Positions 1,158 through 23,298 of a stretch of 32,000 nt of DNA are shown here, in pieces. The notes below the pieces were generated by a model, which was given only the letters and a program-made list of their open reading frames with translations, was not told where the DNA came from and did not search any database. This stretch comes from Erysipelotrichaceae bacterium (GTDB taxonomy: Bacteria > Bacillota_I > Bacilli_A > Erysipelotrichales > Erysipelotrichaceae): assembly GCA_963676105.1 (NCBI GenBank), contig OY781039.1, positions 990,001-1,022,000 of the forward strand, written 5' to 3'. Each line of letters opens with the position of its first letter. Position 1 is the first letter of the stretch. Made by a program: the position numbers and the translations under genes.

Positions 1158-2585
1158 TTAAGATGCAATCCAAACAAGGTAATTTTGTTCAGGATCAGTA
1201 TCATCAATATCCCAATAACCATCACCATTGTCATTTTCTTCTTCATAAACACCTAGCATTACAATACCATTTAGATGTTCTGGATCACCACTTGGATAGA
1301 CATCTGTGTATCCATCAACTGTTGAATCTTCGTTGTCAAATAAAATCATTGTATGCGTTGGAACAGGGTCTGTTAAATATGAATAGCTATTAAAATCACC
1401 ACCTGTAATAGTAAAGATGTTGTCAACATAAGTACCTAAATAAACTTCATATTGGCTACTATTAACAGCATCGTCACCACTGTTATTAAAAGTATCGATA
1501 ACAGGGATTTGATCGTCAGCTCCACTAAATTCAACAACTGTTAAACCAGTAACTCGATAAGGTGAGACTAATTGAGTATTACTCCAACTTACATTTTCAG
1601 TACCTGAACCAAACGGATCGTCAAAACCATCCCCATCAACATCCAACGTTAATGGTGTTGTGTTTATTGTGCTACCACCACCAACTATAACTGCAGGTTC
1701 TTCAACAACTACAACTGGTGCTGGTGCCACATAGACTTGTCGTACAATTTGTACTCGATAAGCTGTTAAAGCTGTAGTATAGGATCCTGCCATTGCACCA
1801 TCATAAGCCCAGTCCCACCATACACCATCTACTTGTGGTTGAATACCGACATGATAAGAACTTAAACCAACTAATCGGGCTTCTAAACCTGTAATCACAT
1901 CCCCTGAACGCTCTGATCCTACAACAGCCATATTACTTGACCACTCAGACCAGCCACTATTCATAAAGTGTGCTCTATATTCAATTAAATCTTCAGTATC
2001 TGATGAAATTAATCCCATTTGTACGGTATAGATTAACCCCGAACCTTGTGTTTCTCGATTGTGGCGAATACTTTGTACAGTTCCACCAACATTTGAGATG
2101 TACTCTACACCTACTTCATCCACTTGTACTCTAAAGCCTGTAATAGGATTAGCTGAATCAAGGGTTCCTGATGTACCACCATTTTCTGTCCAATTACTCC
2201 AACCTAATCCTTGTCGATAGGTTTGATAATACACATTCGCATGTGGGAAATCCTTCAATTGGATTTCTAAACCTAGAATTGCTTCATTATTGTTTGAAGC
2301 AGTTTGCCAACTACTAAACCATGTTGACCAACCTGAAGCTGTATAGACTCGATATTCAATCCCTGATTCATACGGCGAATCAATTAAGTGGATTTCTAAT
2401 GAGTCTAAAGCTGCTCCGTTTTCTGTTCCAGCTAAAGCTCCGCCATAAGCAAAGTCACCTAAGACATGGCTAACACCTGCCTGATAACCAACTTGAACTT
2501 GAAAGTAGTCTGTTGCGCTAACAGGGACTAATGCGAATGATAGTAATACTACTGCAATAAACGTTTTAAAAATTTTACTAAACAT
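1158..2585 (-). CDS. Secreted ChW-repeat protein with a C-terminal DxDxDG-containing domain
   Basis: Signal peptide MFSKIFKTFIAVVLLSFALVPVSA. About six ChW-like repeats (IEYRVYTASGWSTW.., YRQGLGWSNW.., IEYRAHFMNSGWSEW.., VDGVWWDW..). An APAPVVVV linker precedes a C-terminal domain with DVDGDGFDD. SD AGGAGG lies upstream of the ATG, and TGTTATAAT is an extended -10 on the minus strand near 2626-2636. Confidence 0.8.
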   Translation of the reverse strand: MFSKIFKTFIAVVLLSFALVPVSATDYFQVQVGYQAGVSHVLGDFAYGGALAGTENGAALDSLEIHLIDSPYESGIEYRVYTASGWSTWFSSWQTASNNNEAILGLEIQLKDFPHANVYYQTYRQGLGWSNWTENGGTSGTLDSANPITGFRVQVDEVGVEYISNVGGTVQSIRHNRETQGSGLIYTVQMGLISSDTEDLIEYRAHFMNSGWSEWSSNMAVVGSERSGDVITGLEARLVGLSSYHVGIQPQVDGVWWDWAYDGAMAGSYTTALTAYRVQIVRQVYVAPAPVVVVEEPAVIVGGGSTINTTPLTLDVDGDGFDDPFGSGTENVSWSNTQLVSPYRVTGLTVVEFSGADDQIPVIDTFNNSGDDAVNSSQYEVYLGTYVDNIFTITGGDFNSYSYLTDPVPTHTMILFDNEDSTVDGYTDVYPSGDPEHLNGIVMLGVYEEENDNGDGYWDIDDTDPEQNYLVWIAS

Positions 2586-6012: not shown

Positions 6013-6031
6013 GGAAGCCTTAATAGCTTCC
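6013..6031 (-). terminator. Intrinsic terminator overlapping the stop of the 1225-aa gene
   Basis: On the minus strand ggaagc-tattaag-gcttcc is followed by TTTTTAAAGG. Confidence 0.5.
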
Positions 6032-9000
6032 TTCTAATTTATCTTCTTTTTTATCTTTTTTTCTTTTAAATAACCAATAAATGGCAGAAATAATCGCTAT
6101 ACCAATCGCAATCCCTAAGAATAAGACTTTAAGTGTTGCGCTTGCTGGATCGTCTTCTTTCTTAACACCTAGGACATAATAACTAAAGTGCTCTGTGAGA
6201 AAAACCATCGATTGATTAACAGGATCATAGACAGCCTTCATCGCTTGAATAGTTCCATCATCCGTATTATAGAAATACACTTCCATATTATTTGGATCAT
6301 ACTCACCATCAAGCTGATTTAAACCAATACCAACTTTGATCTTTCCACCTAATTCATGAACTGGTTCTTCTCTACCATCTGACCACACTTGGAAAAGTAG
6401 GTAGTCATAAGCAGCTACAATTTCCATATCTTCACCACTTAATAACTCTTCATTAATTTCGGCTTCTGCTTCAATAATTTGTGGTTGTACTTTAAGTGTT
6501 AAATATGCTCCATCTTCATGAGTATTGGAAATAATGTTATCTACCATTGAAACAGGAATGACAAACTGTACACTTCCCATTACGACTAAGATATTATCAT
6601 TGGCATCTAATCCCATTAAATCTTTTTGTGTTATTTGAATACCATATTGATCAGGATTATCATCTTGCACTTCACCAATATATGTGCGTTTAGGTGTTGC
6701 ATCAGGTTGAATTCCTGTTACATCCATTGATTTACTTGAATCATCAGGATAAGCATCACGAACATCAGGGACTCCATCATTATCAGTATCACTCAGTTGA
6801 GGTTTAAAGTTAATAGTATTTGAGCTTAGAGTATATTCACCATTTGAAACAGTTACTTTGATTGAATAGTTATCGTAAGCTTGCAAACCACTTAAATCAA
6901 TATTCAAATCTGAGCCAAATGATCCGACAACCGTTTCACCTGTTGTTAAATTTGTTAATTCGTAAGTATATGAATTAATCACAGGATATCCTTTATCTAT
7001 AACAGATAAATTTAATTGTGCGCCTTCAACATCAATACTGTCGATACTTAATTCACCAATCACTGGTGACTTATGTGTTCTTTCCCAAGATGCAACAATA
7101 TTCAATGAACCTGTTGTACCACGAGCGACCCAGTTTTGGTTAACACCATTAATTGTCCATCCTGTAAATGTATAGTCAGTTCTTGTTGGGTTGTTTAAAG
7201 TAAATCCATCTTCGATGGTATAACTCGTAGGATTTGAGGCATAACCACCACCCAAATCATAGGTAATACCATAAGATACAGTGTTCCATTTCGCATAAAT
7301 CGTTGTATTTTCACCTGGCATCACATCAAACTCATATACACCAGATAAACTTGAATCACTGCTCCAATAAGCAAAGGTATAACCTGTTCGACTTGGAGAT
7401 GATGGCGCGGTTATATCAGTTCCTGCATTTTGTGCGAGCGGTGAAACATATGATCCACCATTTGTATCAAAACTCATGGTATAAGCACCAACAACCCACT
7501 TAGCATATAAAGTAATATCGCTAGTACCCATCGTTGTATTATCAAAATCAAATTCATTCAAGAATGTTTCATCATCCGTATACCAACCATCAAAGGCATT
7601 TCCATATTTTGTAGGCGTTGTAGGAGGAGTAATTAAATCACCAAAATCCACATCAGCATTCGTAATATCATTTCCACCATTGGTGTTATAAATCACTTGA
7701 TTATATTGCGTTTCTGGATAACGTGCGACAATACTTCCACTATCAGCCGCATGGGTTAAAGAAGTTGTTCCACTTAATGTAAATGTGTTAGCCTCAATAC
7801 CTAATAAGTTATATCCTGATTTAGCGCTAACTGTAATATTGGCAGTATATATGGTTCCTGCATGGAATTTACCATCTGTTTCAGCAGGCAACCATGACAC
7901 CGTTGCAGTATAAGTATCACCACTAAAACTTGTGGTTTGTGTAGCCCCAGTCACTGGAACCGCAACACCTGATAGAGAAGTTGAAACAGTCCCAATGGTT
8001 GTAAAACTTACTTCATCGCCATAAGTTGTTCCATAGCTATTGATTGCATACGATCTAACATAATAAGTTGTATGCTCACTTAAACCTGTGACGTCTTCAC
8101 TAAATGTACTAAGTCCATTGGTTTCACCAAAATCATTAACAACCTTAGTACCACTATCCGTTGTTGGTCCAGTAGAGGTTGCATATACAAAACCTCTCTC
8201 TGTAATTGGTGCTGTATCTTCTGAATTATTACTTGTAACTTCACCTGAGAATGTAGCAGTTGTTTTATCATAAGTACTCACACTATTTGTAGGTTCTACT
8301 ATTGGTGCGCCATAAGCTACTAAGGTTAAGGTAGCTGATGAAATACTCGAATATTCATAAAAGTCATCACTAGTGTCACTAGGTGTTCCATTATCGTTAA
8401 CATATTTTGTTACTAGATAGACTGTGTATACACCACCTTGAGTTAATCCAGATAAACTAAAATCATGTGCCACATCAGCAGTTAATGATGCTGTACCATT
8501 TAAAGCAATGGTTGCACCTGTATAATCAACACCTGCCGCAATTTGATCTTCAGTTGGTGCCGTTGACCCTTCAGGAACAACAATATAATATGCAGTCGCA
8601 TCAACACTTGATGTCACAGAAAAATTTGCAGAATGATAATCAATATTTGTAAATGATGCTGCAGCAACAGATTGAATTGATGCAAGGGAACTAGATGCAT
8701 TTGGATCAAGCGAAGAATAAAAAACAATTGTTTCCGATGCTCCAGCAGCTAATGTGCCAATATCAAATGTAATTGCAATTCCATTATCATCATGGGCATA
8801 ACCATTATAATCCCCCGTTAAATCGGAAGATGTAAGTACATAGTTCTCTTCAATAACTGTATTTGGAACAGATGAATCATCCACCCAAAGCCCATTCATA
8901 TATGCATCACTAGGGTCAAATGCAACAAAAGCGGATGCCCTCGCTCTATCATCAAAAGAAATGAAAAAATATGGTTCTAGTGTTTCATCACCTCTTGCAA

Positions 9001-9697
9001 CTACCATAGCTGTTTGATTTCCACTGACACCCGTATTAGGATTGGAAATAACCTTTGCATAGGAAGCATAAGAACCATTTAAATCTTTATCTTGGTCTGG
9101 GTCAAATGATCTAACATATCTAACATTATCTACTGCAACTGAAGATAGATTTTCTATCGTAACAGTAGTCACAAAAAATTTATCATCGGTAGTAAAACTT
9201 ACGACTTGTGTCATTTTTATATTTTCTTTTGTAACCCCAGTCGTGACTGCTCTCATCAAACCATTTGCTGTATCAGAATCATCTACTGTAGAAAGTGCTG
9301 TAATTGGAGAATTCCAATTTTCTCCATTTCTTTCAGCAGCAATATTATTATATGCAGAACCGTCAATTTTATAGGCTAAGATAAATCTCTCTTCTGGTGT
9401 TCCAGGCAAGAAAAAATCACCAGTTGTTGGATCATTCCCATTATCCCATCCATCACCATCAACTGTAAGACCGACATTTGAACGACTAATTGCATGAAAA
9501 CCATCAGGTGCAGAATTATTTGTTCCAAAGGACCCTAAACTTGATACACCTACTTCAATGTATGTACCACCTAAGAAAACATCTCCACCAACAGTAACAG
9601 CACGTGCACCTGTTGCTGCATTAACATCAGTTAAACTAATACTCCATTGTGACAATAGAATTAATAACGCAATTAATAACTTTCCGATTCTACTCAT
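6020..9697 (-). CDS. Large tail-anchored surface protein (adhesin-like) with Listeria-Bacteroides repeats and a TSP3-like Ca-binding motif
   Basis: Signal peptide MSRIGKLLIALLILLSQWSISLTDVNA. Three repeats of the type ..NGG..(G)..F.GW(Y/T)....LYAKW (YNTNGGND..FDGWYTDD..LYAKW; FDTNGGSY..GYTFAYW..IYAKW; YDLGGGYA..YTFTGW). Fn3/Ig-like Thr/Ser-rich modules and DTDNDGVPDVRDAYPDD are present. The C-terminal TM (LFLGIAIGIAIISAIYWLF) carries a KRKKDKKEDK tail. There is no LPXTG. Confidence 0.85.
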   Translation of the reverse strand: MSRIGKLLIALLILLSQWSISLTDVNAATGARAVTVGGDVFLGGTYIEVGVSSLGSFGTNNSAPDGFHAISRSNVGLTVDGDGWDNGNDPTTGDFFLPGTPEERFILAYKIDGSAYNNIAAERNGENWNSPITALSTVDDSDTANGLMRAVTTGVTKENIKMTQVVSFTTDDKFFVTTVTIENLSSVAVDNVRYVRSFDPDQDKDLNGSYASYAKVISNPNTGVSGNQTAMVVARGDETLEPYFFISFDDRARASAFVAFDPSDAYMNGLWVDDSSVPNTVIEENYVLTSSDLTGDYNGYAHDDNGIAITFDIGTLAAGASETIVFYSSLDPNASSSLASIQSVAAASFTNIDYHSANFSVTSSVDATAYYIVVPEGSTAPTEDQIAAGVDYTGATIALNGTASLTADVAHDFSLSGLTQGGVYTVYLVTKYVNDNGTPSDTSDDFYEYSSISSATLTLVAYGAPIVEPTNSVSTYDKTTATFSGEVTSNNSEDTAPITERGFVYATSTGPTTDSGTKVVNDFGETNGLSTFSEDVTGLSEHTTYYVRSYAINSYGTTYGDEVSFTTIGTVSTSLSGVAVPVTGATQTTSFSGDTYTATVSWLPAETDGKFHAGTIYTANITVSAKSGYNLLGIEANTFTLSGTTSLTHAADSGSIVARYPETQYNQVIYNTNGGNDITNADVDFGDLITPPTTPTKYGNAFDGWYTDDETFLNEFDFDNTTMGTSDITLYAKWVVGAYTMSFDTNGGSYVSPLAQNAGTDITAPSSPSRTGYTFAYWSSDSSLSGVYEFDVMPGENTTIYAKWNTVSYGITYDLGGGYASNPTSYTIEDGFTLNNPTRTDYTFTGWTINGVNQNWVARGTTGSLNIVASWERTHKSPVIGELSIDSIDVEGAQLNLSVIDKGYPVINSYTYELTNLTTGETVVGSFGSDLNIDLSGLQAYDNYSIKVTVSNGEYTLSSNTINFKPQLSDTDNDGVPDVRDAYPDDSSKSMDVTGIQPDATPKRTYIGEVQDDNPDQYGIQITQKDLMGLDANDNILVVMGSVQFVIPVSMVDNIISNTHEDGAYLTLKVQPQIIEAEAEINEELLSGEDMEIVAAYDYLLFQVWSDGREEPVHELGGKIKVGIGLNQLDGEYDPNNMEVYFYNTDDGTIQAMKAVYDPVNQSMVFLTEHFSYYVLGVKKEDDPASATLKVLFLGIAIGIAIISAIYWLFKRKKDKKEDKLEGSY

Positions 9698-10690: not shown

Positions 10691-11719
10691 TTAATCATCA
10701 TCTTCCTCTTCTTCATCATTTTCATTTTCGTTATATGAACCATCATCTCGATCATCTTTGTCATCTTCATCATAAAGATCAGGTTTATCTGATTCATCAA
10801 GATAATGTATCGTTCCGTCTTCTAATATAATCATGTCATCATCATCGCCATCATAATCAGGACCATGATGATGATATAAATCTTTAATATCTTCAACTAA
10901 ATCCTCTAAATCAACACCCTCCGTATTTAAACGATCTCGATAAGCACTCACATCAATGCCAGTGCTTTCAGCTTCAATCAATAAAGCATTAATAATGTCT
11001 TTTAATTGATCATCACTTTGATGTTCTGCAATTTCCTCTAATTGATCCATATAAGTAGAGTTCATCATAAACTCACTAATACTCATGGTTTCACCATTCA
11101 CTGAAATCGTACGATTCACCATATACAAACCTAAGGATATTTCTTGTTCTTCAGAATGTTTATAATCATCTTCATCAGCTTCAATGACATAGGTCTTCAC
11201 AGTACTATCTAAATTTTGATTTAAATAAAGTTCTTGTTGAACATTATTCAATAATTCTTGATTATCAACCCCAAAGGATACACTAGATACAACAATCACA
11301 TCATTAAGTGTATCTTCTAAATTCATATAGCCTAAGGCAATTGCTTGCTCAATGACATCATCTAAGACTAAAACAATGTTTTGATTTAACCATGTTGAAG
11401 TATCAAAACTTTCAGCCTCAACGTTTAACATTTTTATATCAACCACATTTTGTTCCATATCCGTATAAAACTCAAAACTAGGATTTACATCGACACTGAC
11501 AACACCATAAGCTCTTACTTGATTAGGTGAAATGATGCCACCCTCTTCTCTAATTGGATTAATATTAAAGAAAATAAGTAAAACCATAGCTATTGACATT
11601 ACTGGCACCATCCAACGTAAACGTAAGACAGGTTTCTTTTCAGGTGTATCTAAAATGGTTTTTAATAGTTCGTCTTCATTTAAAAATGTTTTATCAACAG
11701 CTCTTTTTAAATTTCCCAT
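10691..11719 (-). CDS. Single-pass membrane protein, putative anti-sigma factor with an RsgI-like middle domain and an acidic C-terminal tail
   Basis: It starts 4 nt after the sigma gene, with AGGAGG inside the sigma 3' end. About 35 aa are cytoplasmic, followed by a TM (WMVPVMSIAMVLLIFFNI). The ectodomain opens with YGVVSVDVNPSFEFYTDMEQNVVDIKMLNVEAE, which resembles the B. subtilis RsgI middle domain (..IDINPSVE..). The tail is ..LYHHHGPDYDGDDDD..DEDDKDDRDDGSYNENENDEEEEDDD. Confidence 0.55.
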   Translation of the reverse strand: MGNLKRAVDKTFLNEDELLKTILDTPEKKPVLRLRWMVPVMSIAMVLLIFFNINPIREEGGIISPNQVRAYGVVSVDVNPSFEFYTDMEQNVVDIKMLNVEAESFDTSTWLNQNIVLVLDDVIEQAIALGYMNLEDTLNDVIVVSSVSFGVDNQELLNNVQQELYLNQNLDSTVKTYVIEADEDDYKHSEEQEISLGLYMVNRTISVNGETMSISEFMMNSTYMDQLEEIAEHQSDDQLKDIINALLIEAESTGIDVSAYRDRLNTEGVDLEDLVEDIKDLYHHHGPDYDGDDDDMIILEDGTIHYLDESDKPDLYDEDDKDDRDDGSYNENENDEEEEDDD

Positions 11720-11722
11720 TTT

Positions 11723-12238
11723 TTACGCCTCCTTTATTATCATCTGTCTAAGTGTCTCTAACGCTCTATAATATCGTGTCTTAACACTATTTTCTTTAAC
11801 TATTAATTGCTCTGATATTTCTTTAAAACTCATCTCTAACTTAATCTTAGCGGTAATAATCCGCTGATCAAGTGGAGACAATTGAAGCAAAGCTTTTTCA
11901 ATGCGTTCAATTTCATATTGATTGAAGACCGATTCTTCTAAATCAAAATCATCGACAACTTGCTCAAGTTTATCTTCCCAATCATCATCAACCAAAATTG
12001 TCTTTGATTTCTGTTTATAAAACTTTGATAACTCATTCTTAGCAATCTGAATTAAATAAGCTTCAATATTATCAATATCTAATGATTTCTTTCTTAACTG
12101 AATATATAAATTGGTAAACACAGAAGAAACCACATCTTCCGCATCGCTCATTTGAGGTACTTTAAAAATAACAAACTTAGATATTTGTCCAAAGTACTTA
12201 CGATAAATGCTTTCAAAGTGGTTTACATTAAACTGCAT
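11723..12238 (-). CDS. ECF-type RNA polymerase sigma factor (sigma-70 regions 2 and 4 only)
   Basis: 171 aa. The region 2-like part is ..YRKYFGQISKFVIFKV..AEDVVSSVFTNLY... The region 4 HTH-like part is LSPLDQRIITAKIKLEMSFKEISEQLIVKENSVKTRYYRALETLR. Confidence 0.85.
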   Translation of the reverse strand: MQFNVNHFESIYRKYFGQISKFVIFKVPQMSDAEDVVSSVFTNLYIQLRKKSLDIDNIEAYLIQIAKNELSKFYKQKSKTILVDDDWEDKLEQVVDDFDLEESVFNQYEIERIEKALLQLSPLDQRIITAKIKLEMSFKEISEQLIVKENSVKTRYYRALETLRQMIIKEA

Positions 12239-12240
12239 AT

Positions 12241-13167
12241 TTAATCGTCATCTTCCTCGTCATCGTCATCATGATCATCGTCGTGATGGTCATCATCATC
12301 TTCATCGTCATAATCTCGACTATCACCATCATTATGAGATTCATAGTGATCATCATCGTCGTCATCATCATGATCTTCTCCACCAACTGTTGCGCCTGTT
12401 GTCGTATCAGCGACTGCTGTAGTTGCACTTGTTGTAGGACTAGAGGTAACTGTTGTGGTCGTTGTTGTCTCATGGGTTGTGACTGATGCACCTGTTACCG
12501 TATCAGCTGGTGCAGGACTTGTACTAATCACAAAGTTCCCATTTGAATCAACACTTGCCGTTGAAGTTGTGGCAGTCGTTTCGTTGGCAGGGATAGTTGA
12601 TCCTGTTGTGGTATCAGCAGTTTGATCGACTACAACTGTATTACCATTTGCATCTGTTGTCGTTAAGACTGTATATTGATTGCCTGTAATTGGATCAGTC
12701 ATTACAGATTCTGTGGTTGCGCCTGTCGTCGTATCAACTACTTGATCAACCACTACTGTATTACCATTTGCGTCAACTGTTGTAAGTACAGTATACTCCT
12801 CACCAGTCACTGGGTCAGTCATAACAGTTTCTGTTGTCGTCCCTGTCGTTGTATCTACTGGAACTTCAACTAGTTGCGTTGTTGTTGTCCCATCAGGATT
12901 TGTTACTGTGATTTCTTGCGTCACTGTTTCAGTTGTGGTAGTCGCAGCTGTTTGTGTATCTGCAATACTCGCAATATATTGATCATATCGTTCTGTAAAG
13001 CTATTCAAGTTAGCGAGTTGAGGAATGGCTTGTACAATCGCACTGTTTTGACCAATGTCTGATTGGATCCATTCAATCGCTTTATCTTCGATAACACCAA
13101 TCCCAACACCAACACCGATTGTGCCTACTGTAATTGATGTAATTTTTAAAATGTGTAAAAGTTTCAT
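12241..13167 (-). CDS. N-terminally anchored Thr-rich repeat protein with a poly-Asp/His C-terminal tail
   Basis: SD GGGAGA precedes the ATG. The hydrophobic N-terminus is ITSITVGTIGVGVGIGVI. There are 40-aa tandem repeats. Of the last 45 residues, 27 are D, 5 are E and 6 are H. The stop lies 2 nt before the sigma gene start, so this is the first gene of the sigma operon. Confidence 0.8.
   Translation of the reverse strand: MKLLHILKITSITVGTIGVGVGIGVIEDKAIEWIQSDIGQNSAIVQAIPQLANLNSFTERYDQYIASIADTQTAATTTTETVTQEITVTNPDGTTTTQLVEVPVDTTTGTTTETVMTDPVTGEEYTVLTTVDANGNTVVVDQVVDTTTGATTESVMTDPITGNQYTVLTTTDANGNTVVVDQTADTTTGSTIPANETTATTSTASVDSNGNFVISTSPAPADTVTGASVTTHETTTTTTVTSSPTTSATTAVADTTTGATVGGEDHDDDDDDDHYESHNDGDSRDYDDEDDDDHHDDDHDDDDEEDDD
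12598..12858 (-). repeat. In-frame tandem repeat, 120-nt period, about 2.2 copies
   Basis: 12739-12858 and 12619-12738 align, for example ..ctgtattaccatttgc.. at a 120-nt offset. They encode VDTTTG(T/A)TTE(T/S)VMTDP(V/I)TG..YTVLTT.DANGNTVVVDQ.., and a third partial copy begins ADTTTGS. Confidence 0.9.
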
Positions 13168-13233
13168 ACAAATTCTCCCTTTTACTAACTACGAGTGTCC
13201 ATTGAATAGAATAGTTTCAAAAAACATATATTT

Positions 13234-13267
13234 TTGTCTAAGTTTTGTGACATTTAAACTTTAAACT
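13234..13267 (+). promoter_or_regulatory. Composite promoter P1: phased direct repeats, 10 bp, then -10
   Basis: TTGTCT(13234-39)-aagtt-TTGTGAC(13245-51)-atttaaactt-TAAACT(13262-67). P2 and P3 have the same geometry. Confidence 0.55.
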
Positions 13268-13276
13268 AAGTCTCGA

Positions 13277-13400
13277 GTTGAAAGGATAAACACAAAACAA
13301 TCACATAAACAAAACCAAAGGAATCAAAATTTGTTCCTCTTTGCATGGTTTTGCGTAATAAAGTAATGGTTCCCTACATAAACCGCTTTATCCTTTCAAC
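13277..13400 (+). promoter_or_regulatory. Structured 5' leader of the 13424 gene, closed by a perfect 14-bp long-range helix
   Basis: gttgaaaggataaa (13277-13290) is the exact reverse complement of tttatcctttcaac (13387-13400). An inner imperfect hairpin pairs aaaaccaaagga with tcctctttgcatggtttt (13311-13352). Confidence 0.5.
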
Positions 13401-13423
13401 CCCTTAAAATCTTGGAGAAACAT

Positions 13424-14188
13424 ATGAAAATCAAAACAATTATTATTGGACTCGCGATTGCCTTGGTAGGTGTCGCAGCAATTTATTACTTAGAAACCGA
13501 CGAAGAAGAACATGGCGATAATGAAGGTATTAGTTTAAGTCTGAGTGATGATGAAGGAATAAATGCAGAAGATGCTTATAGCATTTCTGGAAACACATCC
13601 ATCTTAGAAGTATCAGAAGTATTCAATATTGATGAAGCCATTCTTAAAGAAGCTTTCTGTTTAGGTGATGAAGTTGACATCAGTAACTTTGAAACACGTG
13701 ATCTTGAACATTACTATCTAAACTTAGATGAGAGTGTTGAAGTTGGTAATGAAGCAATGCAAGGTTTTGTCGCTTTGTATAATGGCTTAGACTTTGAACT
13801 CGAGGATATCTATTTAACAACAGAAGGAATTGCCTTATTAAATGAACATGGAAAATTAAGTACAGAACAACAAGGCTATTTTGAAAGTCACGCAGTTGAA
13901 ATTACAGAAGTTAGCTTAGCTGATGTTGAAACAGATTCAGAATCAGATGGTAATTACTCAGGAAACACTACCTTACAAGATGTCATCAACTCTGGGATAA
14001 CATTAGAAGAGATTGAAATGATTACTGGTATAGAAATTAGCGAAAAAAATATTCTACTAAGAGATTATGCTGAAGATAATGGTTTATCTTACGGTGGACT
14101 TAAAGAAGATCTACAAGATTACTACATTATTAATGTCTTAGGCATGACTTTAGAAGAATACGATGAAACGCACGAAGATGATCATTAA
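13424..14188 (+). CDS. Hyperacidic membrane-anchored protein of unknown function
   Basis: ATG at 13424 follows GGAG (13414-17); the track start at 13412 is TTG. The N-terminal TM is IKTIIIGLAIALVGVAAIYYL. The remainder is D/E-rich, with two internal repeats around SGNT(S/T)(I/L)..V. The protein ends ..EEYDETHEDDH. Confidence 0.75.
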   Translation: MKIKTIIIGLAIALVGVAAIYYLETDEEEHGDNEGISLSLSDDEGINAEDAYSISGNTSILEVSEVFNIDEAILKEAFCLGDEVDISNFETRDLEHYYLNLDESVEVGNEAMQGFVALYNGLDFELEDIYLTTEGIALLNEHGKLSTEQQGYFESHAVEITEVSLADVETDSESDGNYSGNTTLQDVINSGITLEEIEMITGIEISEKNILLRDYAEDNGLSYGGLKEDLQDYYIINVLGMTLEEYDETHEDDH

Positions 14189-14213
14189 AAAATAACACAA
14201 AAAGTCCAAACTA

Positions 14214-14247
14214 TTGTCATATTATTGTCACAATTCATTGGTATTCT
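14214..14247 (+). promoter_or_regulatory. Composite promoter P2: phased direct repeats, 10 bp, then -10
   Basis: TTGTCA(14214-19)-tatta-TTGTCAC(14225-31)-aattcattgg-TATTCT(14242-47). Confidence 0.55.
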
Positions 14248-14357
14248 AAGAGTGTACCAAAGAGGTATAGGTTAAATCCTTGCAGAAATAATGAATGCAA
14301 CACAACAACCCATAACCCCACAAACTTATACCCTTTGGTTAACACTCCCTTTTTCAT
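14235..14357 (-). CDS. Candidate small hydrophobic protein (40 aa), antisense to candidate sRNA 1
   Basis: Below the track's size cutoff. Minus strand AAAAGGGGG-ttttt-ATG. Hand translation: MKKGVLTKGYKFVGLWVVVLHSLFLQGFNLYLFGTLLEYQ*. The N-terminus is basic and is followed by one TM-length hydrophobic stretch. Confidence 0.4.
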   Translation of the reverse strand: MKKGVLTKGYKFVGLWVVVLHSLFLQGFNLYLFGTLLEYQ

Positions 14358-14411
14358 AAAAACCCCCTTTTATAAAGAAACTCAAATGATAAGCAGCATT
14401 TGAGTTTTTTT
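14254..14411 (+). ncRNA. Candidate sRNA 1 (approximate 5' end), from P2 to an intrinsic terminator
   Basis: A long imperfect helix (about 19 bp) pairs 14250-14269 with 14327-14347. Next comes the unpaired CU-rich segment ctttttcataaaaaccccc (14349-). The terminator is ctcaaatg(14381-88)/catttgag(14397-404) followed by T7. Confidence 0.5.
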
Positions 14412-14461
14412 ATTTCATAAAATTAAACGCCTATAAACAAGTTCACAAAACCTTCACAGCT

Positions 14462-14495
14462 ATGTCTTATAATTGTCACATTCACTTGTTAAACT
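14462..14495 (+). promoter_or_regulatory. Composite promoter P3: phased direct repeats, 10 bp, then -10
   Basis: ATGTCT(14462-67)-tataa-TTGTCAC(14473-79)-attcacttgt-TAAACT(14490-95). Confidence 0.55.
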
Positions 14496-14501
14496 TTAAT
14501 T

Positions 14502-14590
14502 GTTCAAAAGAAAACATCTATTGAACAAAAACTTTTTCATAAAAATCCCTTCTTAAAAATTCCGTATGAACAGCAGCATGCGGTTTTTTT
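14502..14590 (+). ncRNA. Candidate sRNA 2 (approximate 5' end), a shorter paralog of sRNA 1
   Basis: The 5' hairpin is ttgttcaa(14500-07)/ttgaacaa(14521-28). It is followed by ctttttcataaaaatccc (14532-49). The terminator is ccgtatg(14562-68)/catgcgg(14577-83) followed by T7. The block 14532-14590 aligns with 14349-14411. Confidence 0.5.
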
Positions 14591-14606: not shown

Positions 14607-14615
14607 TGCTATAAT
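14607..14615 (+). promoter_or_regulatory. Extended -10 promoter of the lipoprotein gene
   Basis: TGcTATAAT lies 84 nt upstream of the ATG at 14699. Confidence 0.5.
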
Positions 14616-14698
14616 GGAAATAAAGAAGTGTTGAAGCACTAATGTATAAACATAATAATTGTTTTTAAAAGTGTATTTGACAGTTAGTGAGGGAATGT

Positions 14699-15964
14699 AT
14701 GAAAAAGATTATTAAATTTGCCTTAGTCATGTTTTTAAGCATGACTTTTTTAGTCGCTTGTTCAAGTAGCGATACATCGGGTGGTGAAGTCATTGAAGAT
14801 GCGCAAGATGAAGTGATTGAAGAAGTAGATGAAACACAAGTCTATGCGATCGTACAACTTAGTGTAAATCCAACACTTGCCTTCAATGTAAACTGGTATA
14901 AAAAGGTCGTTAGTGTTGAACCAGTAAACACAGATGCAGAAATTTTAGATACTACAGACTATGTTGGCATGGATGTTGATGAAGCGATTGAAGCCTCAGT
15001 GGAGCAAATGGAAGAACTAGAAATTATAAATTTAAGTGACTTAGAAGCTGATTATGCACTCATTACTTCAGCCATCACTGATGATGCATCAGAAACGTAT
15101 CGTGCAGAATTACAGGAAAAAATCCAAGCACGGATTGACTATACGGGTCCTTTATCATCGATGAATGTGGCACAGATGGAAATCGATATGGCGACTCAAG
15201 ATGCCGCAGATAAAGCGATGATCTCAGCCATTGACTATGTTATTGATATGGATACATCTCATGAAGATGGTGAATACTTTAATATTGCCCGTATCTTTCA
15301 AGAAGAAAGTTTAACTGAACAACTCATGGCGACACATTCATTAAGTATTACTGAAGAATCTTTAGAAAATATGAGAGGTAATATTGAAACTGCCTTAGCG
15401 GATTTAGAAAGTCAAGGATATGAGGTAGAATATATCCGTCAAATGATGAATGAGGGAGAAGATACGGTAAACATGCTTCAAACGGTTCAATCAGAAATCA
15501 TAGATTTTAGACAAGTTAAAGAAGAAGAAAAGAAAGCCGCTGAAGAAGCAGCTGCCAAAGCGGCTGAGGGCATCAGTGTTAATAATGTATCCATTTCAAA
15601 ATCCGGTATGCCTACTGTCTTTAATATTACAGTTGATGCTGATGAAGCGGTAAGTGTTTATGTCTTAGTTGAAGCCGATAATGTCTATGCTTCAAATTCA
15701 TACAGCGCATCACAAGTTATTAATGGACAATCTCCAGCTGCAGGACAAAATGGCTATATAGTTATTCATGAAGTATTTAGTCATTCAGGAAGTGGTTCAC
15801 AAAGCTTTACTCTTAATATGGCAAACTATATGGATAATGATGGAGGCGATGCGCAGCCTGATGATGGAAATGGCCCACCAGAAGGTGAAAGCGGTGGTGT
15901 ACCAGTTGCCCTTGTTGTCTGTAAAGATGCAGATGGTAACGTCACAGAGATTACTGCTCAATAA
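14699..15964 (+). CDS. Acidic lipoprotein with an RsgI-middle-like domain (paralog of the anti-sigma ectodomain)
   Basis: ATG at 14699 follows GAGGGA; the track start at 14687 is GTG. The lipobox is MKKIIKFALVMFLSMTFLVAC|SSS. VYAIVQLSVNPTLAFNVNWYKKVVSVEPVNTDAEIL aligns with YGVVSVDVNPSFEFYTDMEQNVVDIKMLNVEAESF of 10691..11719. Confidence 0.8.
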   Translation: MKKIIKFALVMFLSMTFLVACSSSDTSGGEVIEDAQDEVIEEVDETQVYAIVQLSVNPTLAFNVNWYKKVVSVEPVNTDAEILDTTDYVGMDVDEAIEASVEQMEELEIINLSDLEADYALITSAITDDASETYRAELQEKIQARIDYTGPLSSMNVAQMEIDMATQDAADKAMISAIDYVIDMDTSHEDGEYFNIARIFQEESLTEQLMATHSLSITEESLENMRGNIETALADLESQGYEVEYIRQMMNEGEDTVNMLQTVQSEIIDFRQVKEEEKKAAEEAAAKAAEGISVNNVSISKSGMPTVFNITVDADEAVSVYVLVEADNVYASNSYSASQVINGQSPAAGQNGYIVIHEVFSHSGSGSQSFTLNMANYMDNDGGDAQPDDGNGPPEGESGGVPVALVVCKDADGNVTEITAQ

Positions 15965-19703: not shown

Positions 19704-20639
19704 TTATTGTAATTCTTCCCAAGAACTTAGTGCTCCTGTGAAGACGTCATAGACTTGGGCTTGAGTGATTGATGTTAAAGGGTTGTTAATTTCAACGATA
19801 ACCGCAATACCATCTTTACACATCACACCATTGATTGCGCCATCCGCAACCGTTTCTGTATCTTTAAAATCACGTGATGCGAAACCAATATCAGCTGCGT
19901 TTGCACCATCTTTTTCTTCACCTAAGGTACGTTTGAAACCATCACCTGAACCAGTTTGATCCATTGTGAATTGAACTCCGGTTAAAGCTTGGAAGCTCTC
20001 AAGGGCTGCTTTAACAGCTTTTTCGACAGAAGTAGAACCACCAGTTGAAATGGTATAAGCACTTAAATCAGTTGTCGCAATTGGGTAATCAGCTTTTAAG
20101 TCATCCCAGTTAAGAGCGTTATCGTAAGATACGATACCACCTGCACCCTCAACAACTTCTAAACCTTCAACAGACATTGTCATATAAGCAATAAATGCCA
20201 ACACAACTTCTTCTTGTTCAGTTGATGCAAAGTCACCAGTTGCACGTGTTACGTATGAGAATGGACGGGCAAGCGTATAGTCACCAGCCACAACATTTTC
20301 TTGAGTTGCGTCAACACCTTCAAATTGTAAAGCTTTAACATTGTTTGCCGCAAAGTCAGTAGTCAATGAAGCATAACCAATCGCATTAGTATCTTCCCCG
20401 ACCTTAACAGCCATATCACCATTACCAGAAACTTCAATCGCATTAACGGTTAATTCACCTTCAAAACCAATAATTTCTTCGAAGGCACCACGTGTACCAG
20501 ATGATGCATCACGTGTGTAAACGTTAATATCTCCTGTAACGCCAGCAGGTGTAACATCTTCTTCAGCAGGTGTTGATGAACAACCTGTTAGGATTAAACC
20601 TAAAGTAAGAAGAGGTATTAATTTTTTAATGTATTTCAT
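19704..20639 (-). CDS. pstS: Phosphate-binding lipoprotein PstS
   Basis: ATG at 20639 follows GGAGG; the track start at 20678 lacks an SD. The lipobox is LTLGLILTGC|SS. ..YTRDASSGTRGAFEE.. is typical of PstS-family binding proteins. Confidence 0.9.
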   Translation of the reverse strand: MKYIKKLIPLLTLGLILTGCSSTPAEEDVTPAGVTGDINVYTRDASSGTRGAFEEIIGFEGELTVNAIEVSGNGDMAVKVGEDTNAIGYASLTTDFAANNVKALQFEGVDATQENVVAGDYTLARPFSYVTRATGDFASTEQEEVVLAFIAYMTMSVEGLEVVEGAGGIVSYDNALNWDDLKADYPIATTDLSAYTISTGGSTSVEKAVKAALESFQALTGVQFTMDQTGSGDGFKRTLGEEKDGANAADIGFASRDFKDTETVADGAINGVMCKDGIAVIVEINNPLTSITQAQVYDVFTGALSSWEELQ

Positions 20640-20685: not shown

Positions 20686-20713
20686 ACACAAGATGCTTTG
20701 ATGTATCTTGTGT
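20686..20713 (-). terminator. Intrinsic terminator between phoR and pstS
   Basis: The stem acacaagat/atcttgtgt has a 10-nt loop. On the minus strand it is followed by T8. Confidence 0.7.
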
Positions 20714-20727
20714 TAATTAAATGTAAA
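20711..20727 (-). promoter_or_regulatory. Candidate Firmicute-type PhoP box pair upstream of pstS
   Basis: The minus strand reads TTTACA-tttaa-TTAACA. This matches the B. subtilis PhoP repeat TT(A/T/C)ACA with a 5-bp spacer. Only one pair is present, and it abuts the terminator stem. Confidence 0.3.
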
Positions 20728-20742
20728 GAAAAATTAATAAAA

Positions 20743-21951
20743 CTATTTTGGAAACTTAAGCAAGACGGATGTACCTTTATCTATTTCGCTTTCAACGCTT
20801 ATTTCAGCTTGATGCATATTCACATAAGCTTTAACGATCGCTAGCCCTAAACCAGAACCACCACTAAGGCGTGCTCTTGATGTATCACTTCTGAAAAAAC
20901 GATCAAAAATATGACCTAAATCTTCATGTGAAATCCCAATACCTGTATCAACTATTTCAATTAAAGTATGGTTTTTATCTTCATTCACATTAATATTGAT
21001 TTTTCCTTTATACGTGTACTTAGAAGCATTACTGATTAAATTAGTCATTATCTGATGAAATTTCTCAGCATCCACTTTAATTTTTAAATGTTTATCACAA
21101 TTCACATTGATTTGATTTTCATTCTTTAAAATTGATGGATATAAAGACTGAATAGCTGAATCGATAAGATCATTCGCATTGAAAACTTGCGTGTTCAAAA
21201 TCACCTTCGCATTCGCTTGTTTCGATAATTCAGCCAAATCTTTAATAATATTATCCATTCTTTTTGCTTCATCTTGAATATGGTGTAAAAACTCTTTTGA
21301 TGTATCATCATCTTTAAAGTTAGGTCGATTTAATATCTCTACCATACCTAATATTGAAGTTAAAGGTGTTTTGAGTTCATGCGAGGCATCGGCAATAAAA
21401 CGTTTCTGTAAACGTTCACCTTCTAAAAGGGCCGTAATATCTAAAAACATCAACAAACAACCGTTGTAACGCTTCTCATCATAAATAGGGACATTAATCG
21501 CTTGCACATCAATCGCATCCAAACGCATATTTTGACTATAAGCTTCTTCTTTTAAATAAGCTGTACGTACAAAACTAGTGACTTCATCATTTATACTATG
21601 TTGACTATAAATCAAAGGTTTCGATGCATAGAGTTGATTAAAATGTTCATTTGTTAGTTTAAAATCCCCTTGAATATCTAACAAAGCAATTGGAAATGGT
21701 AAGTTTTGTACAATCGTTTCAAGTTGTGATGCTTGAACTTGAGAAAAACGTTCACGCACCTTTGAACTCGATTCTAAACTTGATAATTCTGTTTCATAAG
21801 CTTTAATTCGAAGTTCTAATAATTGTTGATATAAAAGATAATTGATCCCAGCCAAGGTCACAATGATTATCCAAGCTGGTACCACATTTAAAAAAGCTAG
21901 TATGATTCCCAGCCCATTTAAAAAAATTAAACTAATGGCTTGAATTCTCAC
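20743..21951 (-). CDS. phoR: Sensor histidine kinase, PhoR-like
   Basis: Two N-terminal TMs with almost no external loop, then a PAS-like segment. HisKA is FIADASHELKTPLT. The HATPase_c motifs are NLISNASKY, DTGIGI and GGSGLGLAIV. Adjacent to pst. Confidence 0.8.
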   Translation of the reverse strand: MRIQAISLIFLNGLGIILAFLNVVPAWIIIVTLAGINYLLYQQLLELRIKAYETELSSLESSSKVRERFSQVQASQLETIVQNLPFPIALLDIQGDFKLTNEHFNQLYASKPLIYSQHSINDEVTSFVRTAYLKEEAYSQNMRLDAIDVQAINVPIYDEKRYNGCLLMFLDITALLEGERLQKRFIADASHELKTPLTSILGMVEILNRPNFKDDDTSKEFLHHIQDEAKRMDNIIKDLAELSKQANAKVILNTQVFNANDLIDSAIQSLYPSILKNENQINVNCDKHLKIKVDAEKFHQIMTNLISNASKYTYKGKININVNEDKNHTLIEIVDTGIGISHEDLGHIFDRFFRSDTSRARLSGGSGLGLAIVKAYVNMHQAEISVESEIDKGTSVLLKFPK

Positions 21952-22631
21952 TCAGCTACCTCACAACGATATCCCACACCGCGTAATGATGAAATTTCTA
22001 CCTTTGACTTTGATAGTTTTTGACGCAACTTAGAAATATGGACATCAACAATGCGTGTATCACCATCATAATCAAAACCCCATAAATCATTAAGGATTTG
22101 ATCACGAGATAAAACATTCCCTTTTTCTTTACCTAATAATAAAAGCAAATCAAATTCTACTTTAGTTAAGAAAATGAGTTCATTATTAAATTTAACTTCA
22201 CGACGGACCGGATGAATAGAGACATTCCCTAATTGAATGACTTGATTTTGATTACTTTGTAGACGAGATAAATGCGTTTTGAGTCGAACAAGTAATTCTC
22301 GTGATGAAAATGGTTTACTTAAATAATCATCAACTCCTGCTTCAAAGGCTTCAATCAAATCTTCTTCTTCAGATTTAGCCGTCAACATGATAATGAGATG
22401 ACTATCCCCTTTTTCTCGTAATTTGCGCACAAAACCTAAACCATCTAAAACAGGCATCATCCAATCAACGATATATGCATCAAATTCGTATGATTTTGTA
22501 GCCTCTAGTGCTTCTTGTCCATTTTCAAAACTAGACACTTCATAATTAGCGGACTTTAAATCATACGCCACTAAGCGTCTGATATTCTTTTCATCATCTA
22601 CTAGACAGATATGTTGTTTTTTATCACTCAT
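21948..22631 (-). CDS. phoP: OmpR/PhoB-family response regulator, PhoP-like
   Basis: The receiver domain has ..CLVDDE.., ..IVDWMMP.. and ..LTAKSEE..SKPF... The winged-helix C-terminus has ..TRIVDVHISKLRQKL..GVGYR... It overlaps phoR by 4 nt. Confidence 0.85.
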   Translation of the reverse strand: MSDKKQHICLVDDEKNIRRLVAYDLKSANYEVSSFENGQEALEATKSYEFDAYIVDWMMPVLDGLGFVRKLREKGDSHLIIMLTAKSEEEDLIEAFEAGVDDYLSKPFSSRELLVRLKTHLSRLQSNQNQVIQLGNVSIHPVRREVKFNNELIFLTKVEFDLLLLLGKEKGNVLSRDQILNDLWGFDYDGDTRIVDVHISKLRQKLSKSKVEISSLRGVGYRCEVAE

Positions 22632-22674
22632 AATTAATTTAATTATATCTTATCCTGAATTAATAATTGTTTAT

Positions 22675-23298
22675 TTACTGTAAAGATTGAAGTGATACAA
22701 ATGCCCCACAATCTTGAGTACTCTCTAACCAAAGCTTTAAATCAATCTCAATTTTCTTTCCTTGGTCTAAAATCATTGCCTTACAAGTGTTTCCATCATA
22801 ACTAATTTGATACAATACCACCCAATGCCAACGATCAAGTAAATGCTCATCACCATTATGTCGATTTAAAAAGGCAACTAAAAAATTTTGGCTTAATGAT
22901 TCTTCTAGAAATGTTATTAATTCATCAATCTTAATTCGACTATTCTTATGTTTATCCACTAGAATATGACGAATATCATAATTAAGTTTGTACTTTTTTA
23001 AATAACGATTTAAGCCTTTTGTAAATTTATGATAGACATGAACGCCCATCATACCTGGGGTTATATGTTTCCACATACCATTCATAATTTGTCTTATACT
23101 CTCTTCATGGATTGGATTTTCTTCACACAAATCTTTGCGATATTCATACAAAATCAAATTAGAGGCAGCAGTTGGTCCACACCCTGACATCTTTTTCCAT
23201 TTACTCGAATAAAATTCTTGTTGGGCAGCATAAGATACATTTCCTTGTTTATCTAAAATCTTTAACTTTTCAACTGCTTGTATAGATACCGTTTTCAT
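22675..23298 (-). CDS. Hypothetical cytoplasmic protein, possible C39-like (papain-fold) Cys/His peptidase domain
   Basis: 207 aa with no signal peptide. MSGCGPTAASNLILY resembles the C39_2-type catalytic Cys context. A later ..RWHWVVLYQ..(18 aa)..ILDQG could supply the His/Asp. Confidence 0.35.
   Translation of the reverse strand: MKTVSIQAVEKLKILDKQGNVSYAAQQEFYSSKWKKMSGCGPTAASNLILYEYRKDLCEENPIHEESIRQIMNGMWKHITPGMMGVHVYHKFTKGLNRYLKKYKLNYDIRHILVDKHKNSRIKIDELITFLEESLSQNFLVAFLNRHNGDEHLLDRWHWVVLYQISYDGNTCKAMILDQGKKIEIDLKLWLESTQDCGAFVSLQSLQ

Follow-up and report, generated by a model that had tools for sequence, protein, structure and literature searches.

An OmpR/PhoB-type promoter box, conserved in relatives, probably links a hyperacidic membrane protein and two small RNAs in an Erysipelotrichaceae bacterium

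Which protein reads three promoters of one composite design, and what do they serve? The question is raised by a 32-kb stretch of the genome of an Erysipelotrichaceae bacterium (contig OY781039.1, positions 990,001 to 1,022,000), called the window throughout, to whose full length all positions refer. The promoters, P1, P2 and P3, precede the gene for a hyperacidic membrane-anchored protein (P1) and two short RNAs (P2 and P3; Table 1). Going by comparison of sequences, we think it reasonably likely that P1-P3 are activator-dependent housekeeping-sigma promoters of an OmpR/PhoB-family response regulator, and that they drive the acidic-protein mRNA together with two repressor small RNAs (sRNAs). 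The regulator is most likely PhoB-, WalR- or CssR-like and encoded elsewhere in the genome, rather than being the PhoP-like protein encoded 7 kb away.

The three composite sites had been proposed in a preliminary description of the window, and their letters read exactly as given there. A search of both strands with the pattern WTGTCW-N5-TTGTSAC-N10-TAWWCT, allowing at most two mismatches, returned three matches in 32 kb where 0.02 would be expected; these are P1-P3, all on the plus strand and identically spaced, as originally claimed. None of 100 shuffled sequences held three or more sites. The pattern was drawn from P1-P3 themselves, and this test of chance is therefore partly circular. As an independent check, we used a 36-bp weight matrix derived from 14 sites in 10 loci (three sites from the window and 11 from relatives). 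P1-P3 scored 37-39 bits and the next-best position in the window 9.5 bits, a gap of more than 25 bits that mostly removes the worry about circularity. No further high-scoring sites were found by the matrix in the related loci scanned.

The anatomy common to the three promoters is TGTCWN-N5-TGTSAC-N10-TAWWCT. Two direct hexamers follow each other with an 11-bp period, and the second ends exactly 10 nt before the -10 box in P1, P2 and P3, which is the canonical distance that had been reported for P2. A sigma-70 -35 hexamer at 16-18 bp from the -10 is absent from all three. The proposals that phased repeats stand in for the -35, and that the arrangement is that of an OmpR/PhoB-family site, are both borne out by this geometry, and a degenerate form of the pattern also retrieves genuine Pho boxes, as described below. 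Promoters activated by PhoB in Escherichia coli have the same layout, hexamer-N5-hexamer-N10 and a -10 with no -35. Agreement with the enterobacterial Pho box CTGTCATAWAWCTGTCAY was confirmed at 15 of 18 positions for P2, and amounts to 15 of 18 for P3 and 11 of 18 for P1. The earlier picture needs one refinement, namely that the -10 is TG-extended in two of the three promoters (P2 and P3). A transcript-like unit begins 6-8 nt past each site, comprising a leader and coding sequence behind P1 and short terminated RNAs behind P2 and P3. That P1-P3 behave as promoters, each with its downstream transcript-like unit, is supported by these features of the DNA. A normal sigma-A-type promoter, TTGACC-N17-TAAAAT, is visible elsewhere in the window.

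Table 1. Positions of the promoters, predicted transcripts and regulatory boxes in the window (MFE, minimum free energy)
Feature	Position	Strand	Description
Likely promoter of the extracytoplasmic function (ECF) sigma operon	13190..13219	-	TGAAAC (13219-13214) ... CTCGTA (CGTA 13193-13190); back-to-back with P1
P1 promoter	13234..13267	+	TTGTCT-aagtt-TTGTGAC-N10-TAAACT; without -35, without TG extension
Structured 5´ leader of acidic-protein mRNA	13274..13423	+	150 nt; MFE -29.5 kcal/mol, z -2.6
Acidic-protein gene	13424..14188	+	254 aa; N-terminal membrane anchor; 61 D+E against 8 K+R; isoelectric point 4.05
P2 promoter	14214..14247	+	TTGTCA-tatta-TTGTCAC-N10-TATTCT; extended -10 TGgTATTCT
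sRNA-1	14254..14411	+	~158 nt; long 5´ hairpin, core and intrinsic terminator; MFE -37.4, z -6.6
Two extra hexamers, TTCACA-N5-TTCACA	14442..14458 (starts 14442, 14453)	+	11-bp phase with P3 boxes, at about -60 and -49
P3 promoter	14462..14495	+	ATGTCT-tataa-TTGTCAC-N10-TAAACT; extended -10 TGtTAAACT
sRNA-2	14502..14590	+	~89 nt; 5´ hairpin, core and terminator; MFE -20.8, z -5.0
Third PhoP-type pair	19773-19789	-	inside 3´ end of pstS, ahead of pstC
PhoP-type pair TTTACA-N5-TTAACA	20711..20727	-	upstream of pstS; conserved in L001 and L002 with the same 31 nt to the -10
PhoP-type pair TTTACA-N5-TAAACA	22668..22684	-	upstream of PhoP-like response-regulator gene; conserved in L001 and L002

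Homologues of the acidic protein led us to nine syntenic or related contigs; these and other related loci are given L-numbers. The box lies upstream of the acidic gene in L009, L001 and L002, and upstream of a Fer4_5 gene that precedes the acidic gene in L004, L006 and L008. In L001, L002 and L009, a second copy follows the acidic gene and stands ahead of an orthologue of sRNA-1. When all 14 are lined up by their -10, they read (T/C)GTnW-N5/6-(T/C)GTnAC-N10-TAnnCT, and their spacers and flanks are unrelated. Two direct half-sites with an 11-bp period are present in all of them (3/3 in the window, 11/11 in relatives), and one G is invariant in each box (14/14 per box, 28/28 overall). Extra upstream repeats of the TGTYAC type keep the same phase in L006, L039 and L004, with a third repeat one turn further upstream in L006 and L039. 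The small regulon first suggested for the window, the acidic gene and two short RNAs, is correct there and is kept in relatives.

Downstream of P2 and P3 we found no plausible coding sequence. Each promoter is followed by a predicted structured RNA that ends in an intrinsic terminator. The 5´ hairpin of sRNA-1 carries conserved unpaired AUCCUUGCA and CCCAUAACCCC, and its unpaired core, CUCCCUUUUUCAUAAAAACCCCCUUUU, occupies positions 14345-14371. Orthologues from four genomes share 21 consensus pairs, 12 of them with compensatory changes, and keep the three unpaired C-rich islands. In sRNA-2, the unpaired core CUUUUUCAUAAAAAUCCCUUCUU (14532-14554) precedes the terminator at 14562-14583 and its U-run. 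The core common to both, CUUUUUCAUAAAAAYCCC, is unpaired in both folds and has these two occurrences in the window and none elsewhere there. Read as 5´-CUUUUUCAU-AAAAA-YCCC-3´, it complements the Firmicute initiation region GGGR-UUUUU-AUGAAAAAG; its reverse complement, GGGR-UUUUU-AUG-AAAAAG, amounts to a Shine-Dalgarno sequence, a spacer, a start codon and Lys-Lys.

Among the window genes, the best predicted duplexes of the sRNAs were with a surface-protein gene (6020-9697, -22.1 kcal/mol) and the downstream lipoprotein gene (14699-15964, -19.9 kcal/mol). The former, the top predicted target, encodes a 1225-aa Listeria-Bacteroides-repeat surface protein. These in-window predictions are only suggestive. 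The lipoprotein gene (14687-15964, plus strand) encodes a second RsgI_M-domain protein, one with a lipoprotein signal peptide but lacking an anti-sigma domain. A promoter belonging to this gene, TGcTATAAT, can be made out by eye at about 14608-14616, and the initiation region of the gene, GAGGGAAUGUAUGAAAAAG, is among the two best predicted partners of the sRNA core.

The output of P1 has an RNA element of its own. In the leader of the acidic-protein mRNA, a 14-bp long-range stem (~13277-13290 with 13387-13400) encloses unpaired UUCCUCUUUGCA and UUCCCUACA. In an alignment of four genomes, the 14 pairs of this stem are kept (one breaks in one sequence), four of them with compensatory changes. 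The layout is that of the sRNA-1 5´ domain, with a long closing stem and unpaired YCYUUGCA and CCCUAYA, in the window, L009, L001 and L002. Given the similar stem and C-rich motifs, the P1 leader and the sRNA 5´ domain appear to be paralogues. The P2 and P3 RNAs in turn have a common core and terminator loop, and this likeness, together with the layout of the leader, indicates that the three units are paralogous. The leader might itself serve as a regulatory RNA or a sponge, or be the precursor of one.

For the acidic protein, no Pfam or NCBIfam family was found. Its AlphaFold model has a predicted local distance difference test score (pLDDT) of 78, and a fold search with it gave only weak matches (E ~1), to the small nuclear magnetic resonance domains 2k5e and 2k53. 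In more distant relatives the protein is encoded by the second gene of an operon, behind a NapH/NosR-like Fer4_5 membrane ferredoxin (L004 5495-7029, L006 2972-4511, L008 463-1990, L007 5168-6756). The Fer4_5 gene is missing from the lineage of the window, where the leader starts with what appears to be the old Fer4_5 ribosome-binding region (GUUGAAAGGA). In L039, from a metagenome-assembled genome (MAG) of Acholeplasmataceae, the repeat TTGTC(G/A)C occurs three times in phase, with an extended -10 (1245-1276, minus strand), ahead of a gene whose product is acidic and secreted and contains GVIRMLGVRND repeats. Here, for a second time, the box is tied to an acidic exported protein.

The combination of promoter and sRNA is found beyond the loci with acidic-protein homologues. 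Erysipelothrix sp. HDW6A (L083, L150) has the same promoter and a comparable sRNA, as do dozens of contigs from human-gut metagenomes. A second sRNA-like unit follows directly on the first in Erysipelothrix (L083 582-730, plus strand), with the 5´ hairpin of the first unit (GUGUAAGAUAAAUAAGUCUUAC), C-rich stretches and a degenerate box, GCGTAA-N5-CGATAA; the tandem arrangement of the window thus recurs. The gut element, a very frequent one, pairs the promoter GTCAAATATTTGTCACAATTTCTATTTATTAT with a downstream sRNA, some 100 nt long, that contains GUUUUUCAUUUUCUCAUUACCC and has a GC-rich terminator; it is present in L129, L131, L134, L139, L140, L148, L153, L154, L164, L166 and some 15 more contigs; in L154 it lies at 7848-7879 (minus strand), between plsY-like and nrdD-like genes. 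The metagenomes thus added copies of the sRNA but brought no regulator to light; the only two-component genes in the gut contigs are about 6 kb away and match the receiver domain only. Among the matches listed, the named genomes that pair the promoter with either an sRNA or an acidic protein are those of Erysipelothrix and the Acholeplasmataceae MAG.

The degenerate pattern has a still wider distribution. In reference genomes it retrieved at least 119 loci, mostly proteobacterial Pho boxes and, among those listed, none from the source genome of the window; about 35-40 of the 119 loci listed have pst or phoB genes within 8 kb. That roughly a third of them lie near such genes identifies the motif as a functional PhoB-type box in Proteobacteria, Omnitrophota, Elusimicrobia and Planctomycetes. 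Among the Firmicute matches listed, the box precedes genes for exported proteins (a PrsA-like foldase, DUF2680, small highly charged secreted and porin-like proteins), and in three loci a two-component system adjoins it or lies near it. In Negativicutes and Clostridia, TGTCAY-N5-TGTCAC-N10 and a -10 stand before such exported-protein genes in L116, L032, L097/L133, L080, L121, L012, L075 and L015; in L080, an operon of a response regulator and a kinase is divergent from the box. These sites hint at a widespread, uncharacterised envelope regulon of Firmicutes.

We suggest a mechanism in which regulator binding, activation over repression, the start sites, the targets and the inducing signal are all inferred. 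P1-P3 would be housekeeping-sigma promoters unable to work alone, with a weak -10 (TAAACT or TATTCT) and no -35. Their two half-sites read (T/C)GT(C)A(Y), lie near -39/-34 and -28/-23 and are one helical turn apart, with 10 bp between the end of the second and the -10. At this spacing the response regulator, phosphorylated and dimerised head to tail, could occupy both boxes, contact sigma region 4 and recruit RNA polymerase, as do PhoB of E. coli and CiaR of Streptococcus pneumoniae. Once activated, the regulator would switch on three transcripts, the mRNA for the hyperacidic membrane-anchored protein with its sRNA-like leader and two trans-acting sRNAs. The sRNAs may pair through the CAU...YCCC core, and perhaps through other C-rich islands, with Shine-Dalgarno and start-codon regions, and translation would be repressed. 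Their targets are probably exported or surface proteins with genes starting AUG AAA AAG. If CiaRH, LisRK and CssRS are a guide, the regulator may respond to stress on the cell envelope or on secretion; it may also respond to phosphate limitation.

Two described systems resemble this design. In the CiaR system of Streptococcus and its cia-dependent small RNAs (csRNAs), the promoter search rule is TTTAAG-N5-TTTAAG, 10 nt and TATAAT (PMC3091779), which shares with P1-P3 the two direct hexamers, the N5 spacer, the 10 nt to the -10 and the lack of a -35. The strongest promoters of this CiaR-activated geometry drive csRNAs (PMC3091779; PMC8186281), and the five strongest yield RNAs with unpaired anti-Shine-Dalgarno and anti-AUG sequences (PMC3091779). 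The likeness extends to several paralogous sRNAs of 50-200 nt driven by the strongest promoters, and to an unpaired stretch with anti-Shine-Dalgarno and CAU (anti-AUG) sequences between 5´ hairpin and terminator; the consensus core of the csRNAs, UUUUUUCAUAAUAAUCUCC, resembles CUUUUUCAUAAAAAUCCC here. The systems differ in that the hexamer here is TGTCAY (boxes TGTCWN and TGTSAC) and not TTTAAG, a large additional 5´ domain is present in sRNA-1, an mRNA with an sRNA-like leader is the output of one of the promoter copies, and the lineage is a Firmicute outside Streptococcus, with 35% GC in the window. They also differ by covariance model. At gathering thresholds Rfam had no match in the window, and at E-value thresholds the best was csRNA (RF02379) on exactly the span of sRNA-2 (14502-14590), with 24.8 bits against a gathering score of 57. 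We do not claim homology to csRNA, LhrC or RsaE, since the csRNA score is sub-threshold, concerns one RNA and was not reproduced on its relatives.

The other parallel is LisRK with LhrC1-5 of Listeria monocytogenes, where the sRNAs are likewise multicopy and tandem and LhrC is under an OmpR-family envelope-stress regulator. LhrC sRNAs block the Shine-Dalgarno sequences of surface-protein and lipoprotein mRNAs (PMC4132741), and a surface protein and a lipoprotein are the best predicted targets here. Both systems have several redundant CU-rich single-stranded motifs of the UCCC type, which here are AUCCUUGCA, CCCAUAACCCC and the core, conserved outside predicted helices. Unlike LhrC, the RNAs here have an explicit anti-AUG element, and there is no similarity in sequence or covariance model (no Rfam match to LhrC at E <= 10). 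Repression of translation by pairing with the initiation region has been shown or proposed for csRNAs (PMC3091779) and shown for LhrC (PMC4132741).

The boxes themselves can be compared with those of known regulators. For all its agreement with P2 and P3, and the common 10 bp to the -10, the E. coli Pho box differs in its use, as the box here stands neither at pstS nor at the pho regulator gene and drives sRNAs and an acidic protein. The WalR consensus, TGTWAH-N5-TGTWAH, fits the site of the distant orthologue L008 (TGTTAC-N5-CGTAAC), but most sites have C for W at position 4. With the canonical CssR box of Bacillus subtilis, TTTTCACA, known from secretion stress and htrA/htrB (PMC6749698), the proximal box TTGTCACA agrees at seven of eight positions and has G for T. 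Exported or envelope proteins are under the control of WalR and of CssR alike; downstream of the boxes, neither htrA nor an autolysin gene was seen, and no orthologue of either regulator was located. The consensus sequences for Spo0A (TGTCGAA), Rex (TTGTGAA-N6-TTCACAA) and the CRP/FNR palindromes did not fit by inspection, and TTGTCA does not fit as a sigma-A -35, from which the spacers would be 11 or 22 nt.

The same window holds boxes of another type. The PhoP box of B. subtilis is made of TT(A/T/C)ACA repeats, direct hexamers in 11-bp phase at about -60 to -22 on the coding strand, and exactly this type is used by the pst and pho promoters of this genome. Pairs matching TTHACA-N5-TWAACA number three in the window against 0.13 expected. 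One had been placed upstream of pstS by the preliminary description, correctly, and its conservation in two other genomes is matched by that of a pair at the regulator gene itself; the early caution about the cognate regulator was right. The pst-type boxes share the 11-bp phase to the -10 with the new boxes and read T where the new boxes read G; the conserved letters are T..ACA in the former and YGTC in the latter. The weight matrix places no new-type site in front of pstS or the regulator gene, and pst-type pairs are absent from P1 and P2. A partition so clean and conserved argues for two different proteins, and on this comparison the PhoP-like regulator probably does not bind P1-P3. Neither this regulator nor those beside TGTCAY boxes in other Firmicutes were assigned an NCBIfam equivalog. 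Near these boxes, the window and L002 have a phoR terminator hairpin between the PhoP boxes and the pstS -10. The PhoP-like regulator gene is directly preceded by a gene (22675-23298, minus strand), also kept in L001 and L002, for a protein of about 205 aa without a Pfam family; this preceding gene carries the sigma-A-type promoter mentioned above.

Several observations weigh against control by a separate, activating response regulator. The PhoP-like gene is the only response-regulator gene in the window or any related locus. Target prediction covered 31 genes, those of the window, and its predictions are unvalidated; the csRNA match is weak (E = 1.6) and absent for the orthologous sRNAs (L003, L009), the Erysipelothrix sRNA of L083 and the gut sRNA. 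The acidic gene lies beside phoU-pst-phoRP in five of seven homologous loci (the window, L001, L002, L004/L005 and L006), which could mean a Pho link over inherited synteny, and P3 has two perfect TTCACA PhoP hexamers at -60 and -49, where pstS promoters have theirs. P2, P3 and most orthologous sRNA promoters also have TGn before the -10; they might fire without an activator, and the repeats would then be an operator. The Pho-related facts would suit the PhoP-like regulator of the adjacent phoU-pstBACS-phoRP cluster (21948-22631) as activator, with the sRNAs and the acidic protein in the phosphate-starvation regulon, an explanation that we regard as unlikely. On this view PhoP would bind, as it does in B. 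subtilis, to four hexamers in phase, of which the strong ones would lie distally at pstS (TTTACA, TWAACA) and proximally at P1-P3 (GTCAYA, GTCACA). The single phase of both box types relative to the -10 agrees with this, GTCACA is one position off TT(A/T/C)ACA, and the pstS promoter of L002 also uses TAAACT as its -10. The TTCACA pair of P3 fits the B. subtilis consensus, at the same phased positions as the conserved pstS-promoter boxes; it is present in this genome only. Against PhoP stand the perfect and conserved split, with G in 28 of 28 new boxes and T in the aligned pst-type hexamers, and the mutually exclusive placement of the two box types at pstS and the regulator gene on the one hand and P1 and P2 on the other. 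The distal boxes (GTCTAA, GTCTTA, GTCATA) match the Firmicute consensus at only three to four of six positions, the range for all conserved boxes of P1-P3 being three to five, and pst does not adjoin the motif or homologous gene in L007, L008, L083, L039 or the gut contigs.

The TG extensions bear on a further explanation, to which we give little credence, in which constitutive extended -10 promoters are repressed by a direct-repeat-binding protein, of the OmpR family or another, at -39 to -23. In Firmicutes a TG extension can make a -35 dispensable, and the boxes overlap the region that RNA polymerase occupies. However, P1 and all P1-type promoters are without TG (CGn or other) and have a weak -10 (TAAACT, TAGACT or TACACT), with the same boxes at the same distance; the exact 10 bp to the -10 is the geometry of activation by PhoB and CiaR, and the fixed phase extends to the extra upstream repeats of L006 and L039, as is typical of activator arrays. 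The neighbourhood of P1 offers another candidate. A divergent operon (10691-13230, minus strand) encodes a Thr/Val-rich repeat surface protein (12241-13167), an ECF sigma factor (11723-12238) and an RsgI_M anti-sigma factor (10691-11719), and such an operon of ECF sigma and RsgI-like anti-sigma genes lies immediately upstream in the window, L001 and L004/L005. Its likely promoter, TTTRAAACT-N18-CTC(G/T)TA in six aligned loci (TTTRAAACT and TC invariant, CTC in 5/6), is likely auto-regulated. The ECF sigma factor could read P1-P3 only if the repeats served as its -35 and the CGT of some orthologues as its -10, and several P1-type promoters do read TTCGTTAAACT, which contains CGT. We rejected this reading, which has a very small chance of being right, because the operon's own conserved promoter bears no resemblance to P1-P3 and the spacings are unfit: TGTSAC is 7 nt from CGT/TGn when measured from the proximal box and 18-19 nt from the distal one, where 16-17 nt are usual, and there is no AAC motif. 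The sRNA promoters, moreover, carry TG and not CG, L006 keeps the motif without a sigma gene between its AP-endonuclease and Fer4_5 genes, and the motif occurs at loci with no ECF gene nearby (L083, gut contigs). It is equally hard to believe that the likeness of P1-P3 is a residue of recent local copying of a promoter-plus-RNA cassette, with no shared regulator. The units are indeed paralogous, as their core, terminator loop and leader layout attest, but the three upstream regions show no relation to one another beyond the boxes and the -10, and the pattern of boxes and spacing persists between contigs with acidic proteins of only 42-87% identity, as well as at non-homologous loci of other lineages.

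A broader idea, which we put forward only tentatively and think doubtful, is that the Erysipelotrichales/Acholeplasmatales branch, along with other Firmicutes, has kept a response regulator of PhoB-like DNA specificity (TGTCAY-N5-TGTCAY) that no longer serves phosphate transport. Such a regulator would govern an envelope programme of anti-initiation-region sRNAs and hyperacidic or highly charged exported proteins, beside a Bacillus-type PhoP that keeps pst. In another version of this idea, one PhoP would read two box dialects, and if that were true, it would be the first phosphate-controlled sRNA tier in Firmicutes. Either way, the regulon would include a very abundant sRNA of the human gut.

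Returning to a separate OmpR/PhoB-family activator, we see the circuit as a conserved, undescribed case of a two-component regulator that controls small RNAs, as known from streptococci and Listeria. Its architecture and function match those of CiaR-csRNA and LisR-LhrC, which places it with that known type, in an understudied lineage. It adds two modest twists, a near-canonical enterobacterial Pho box that the pst and pho genes of the same genome do not use, and an mRNA leader that resembles an sRNA. The locus provides a sequence-defined regulon, with a box, a spacing, three outputs here and more in relatives, for poorly studied low-GC Firmicutes, among them Erysipelothrix-like bacteria, Acholeplasmataceae and an abundant human-gut bacterium. 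A near-perfect Pho box of the enterobacterial type in a Firmicute need not mark pst or pho genes, which calls for caution when regulons are transferred by motif. The design of a regulator plus sRNAs would thereby extend beyond the csRNAs of Streptococcus and LhrC of Listeria.

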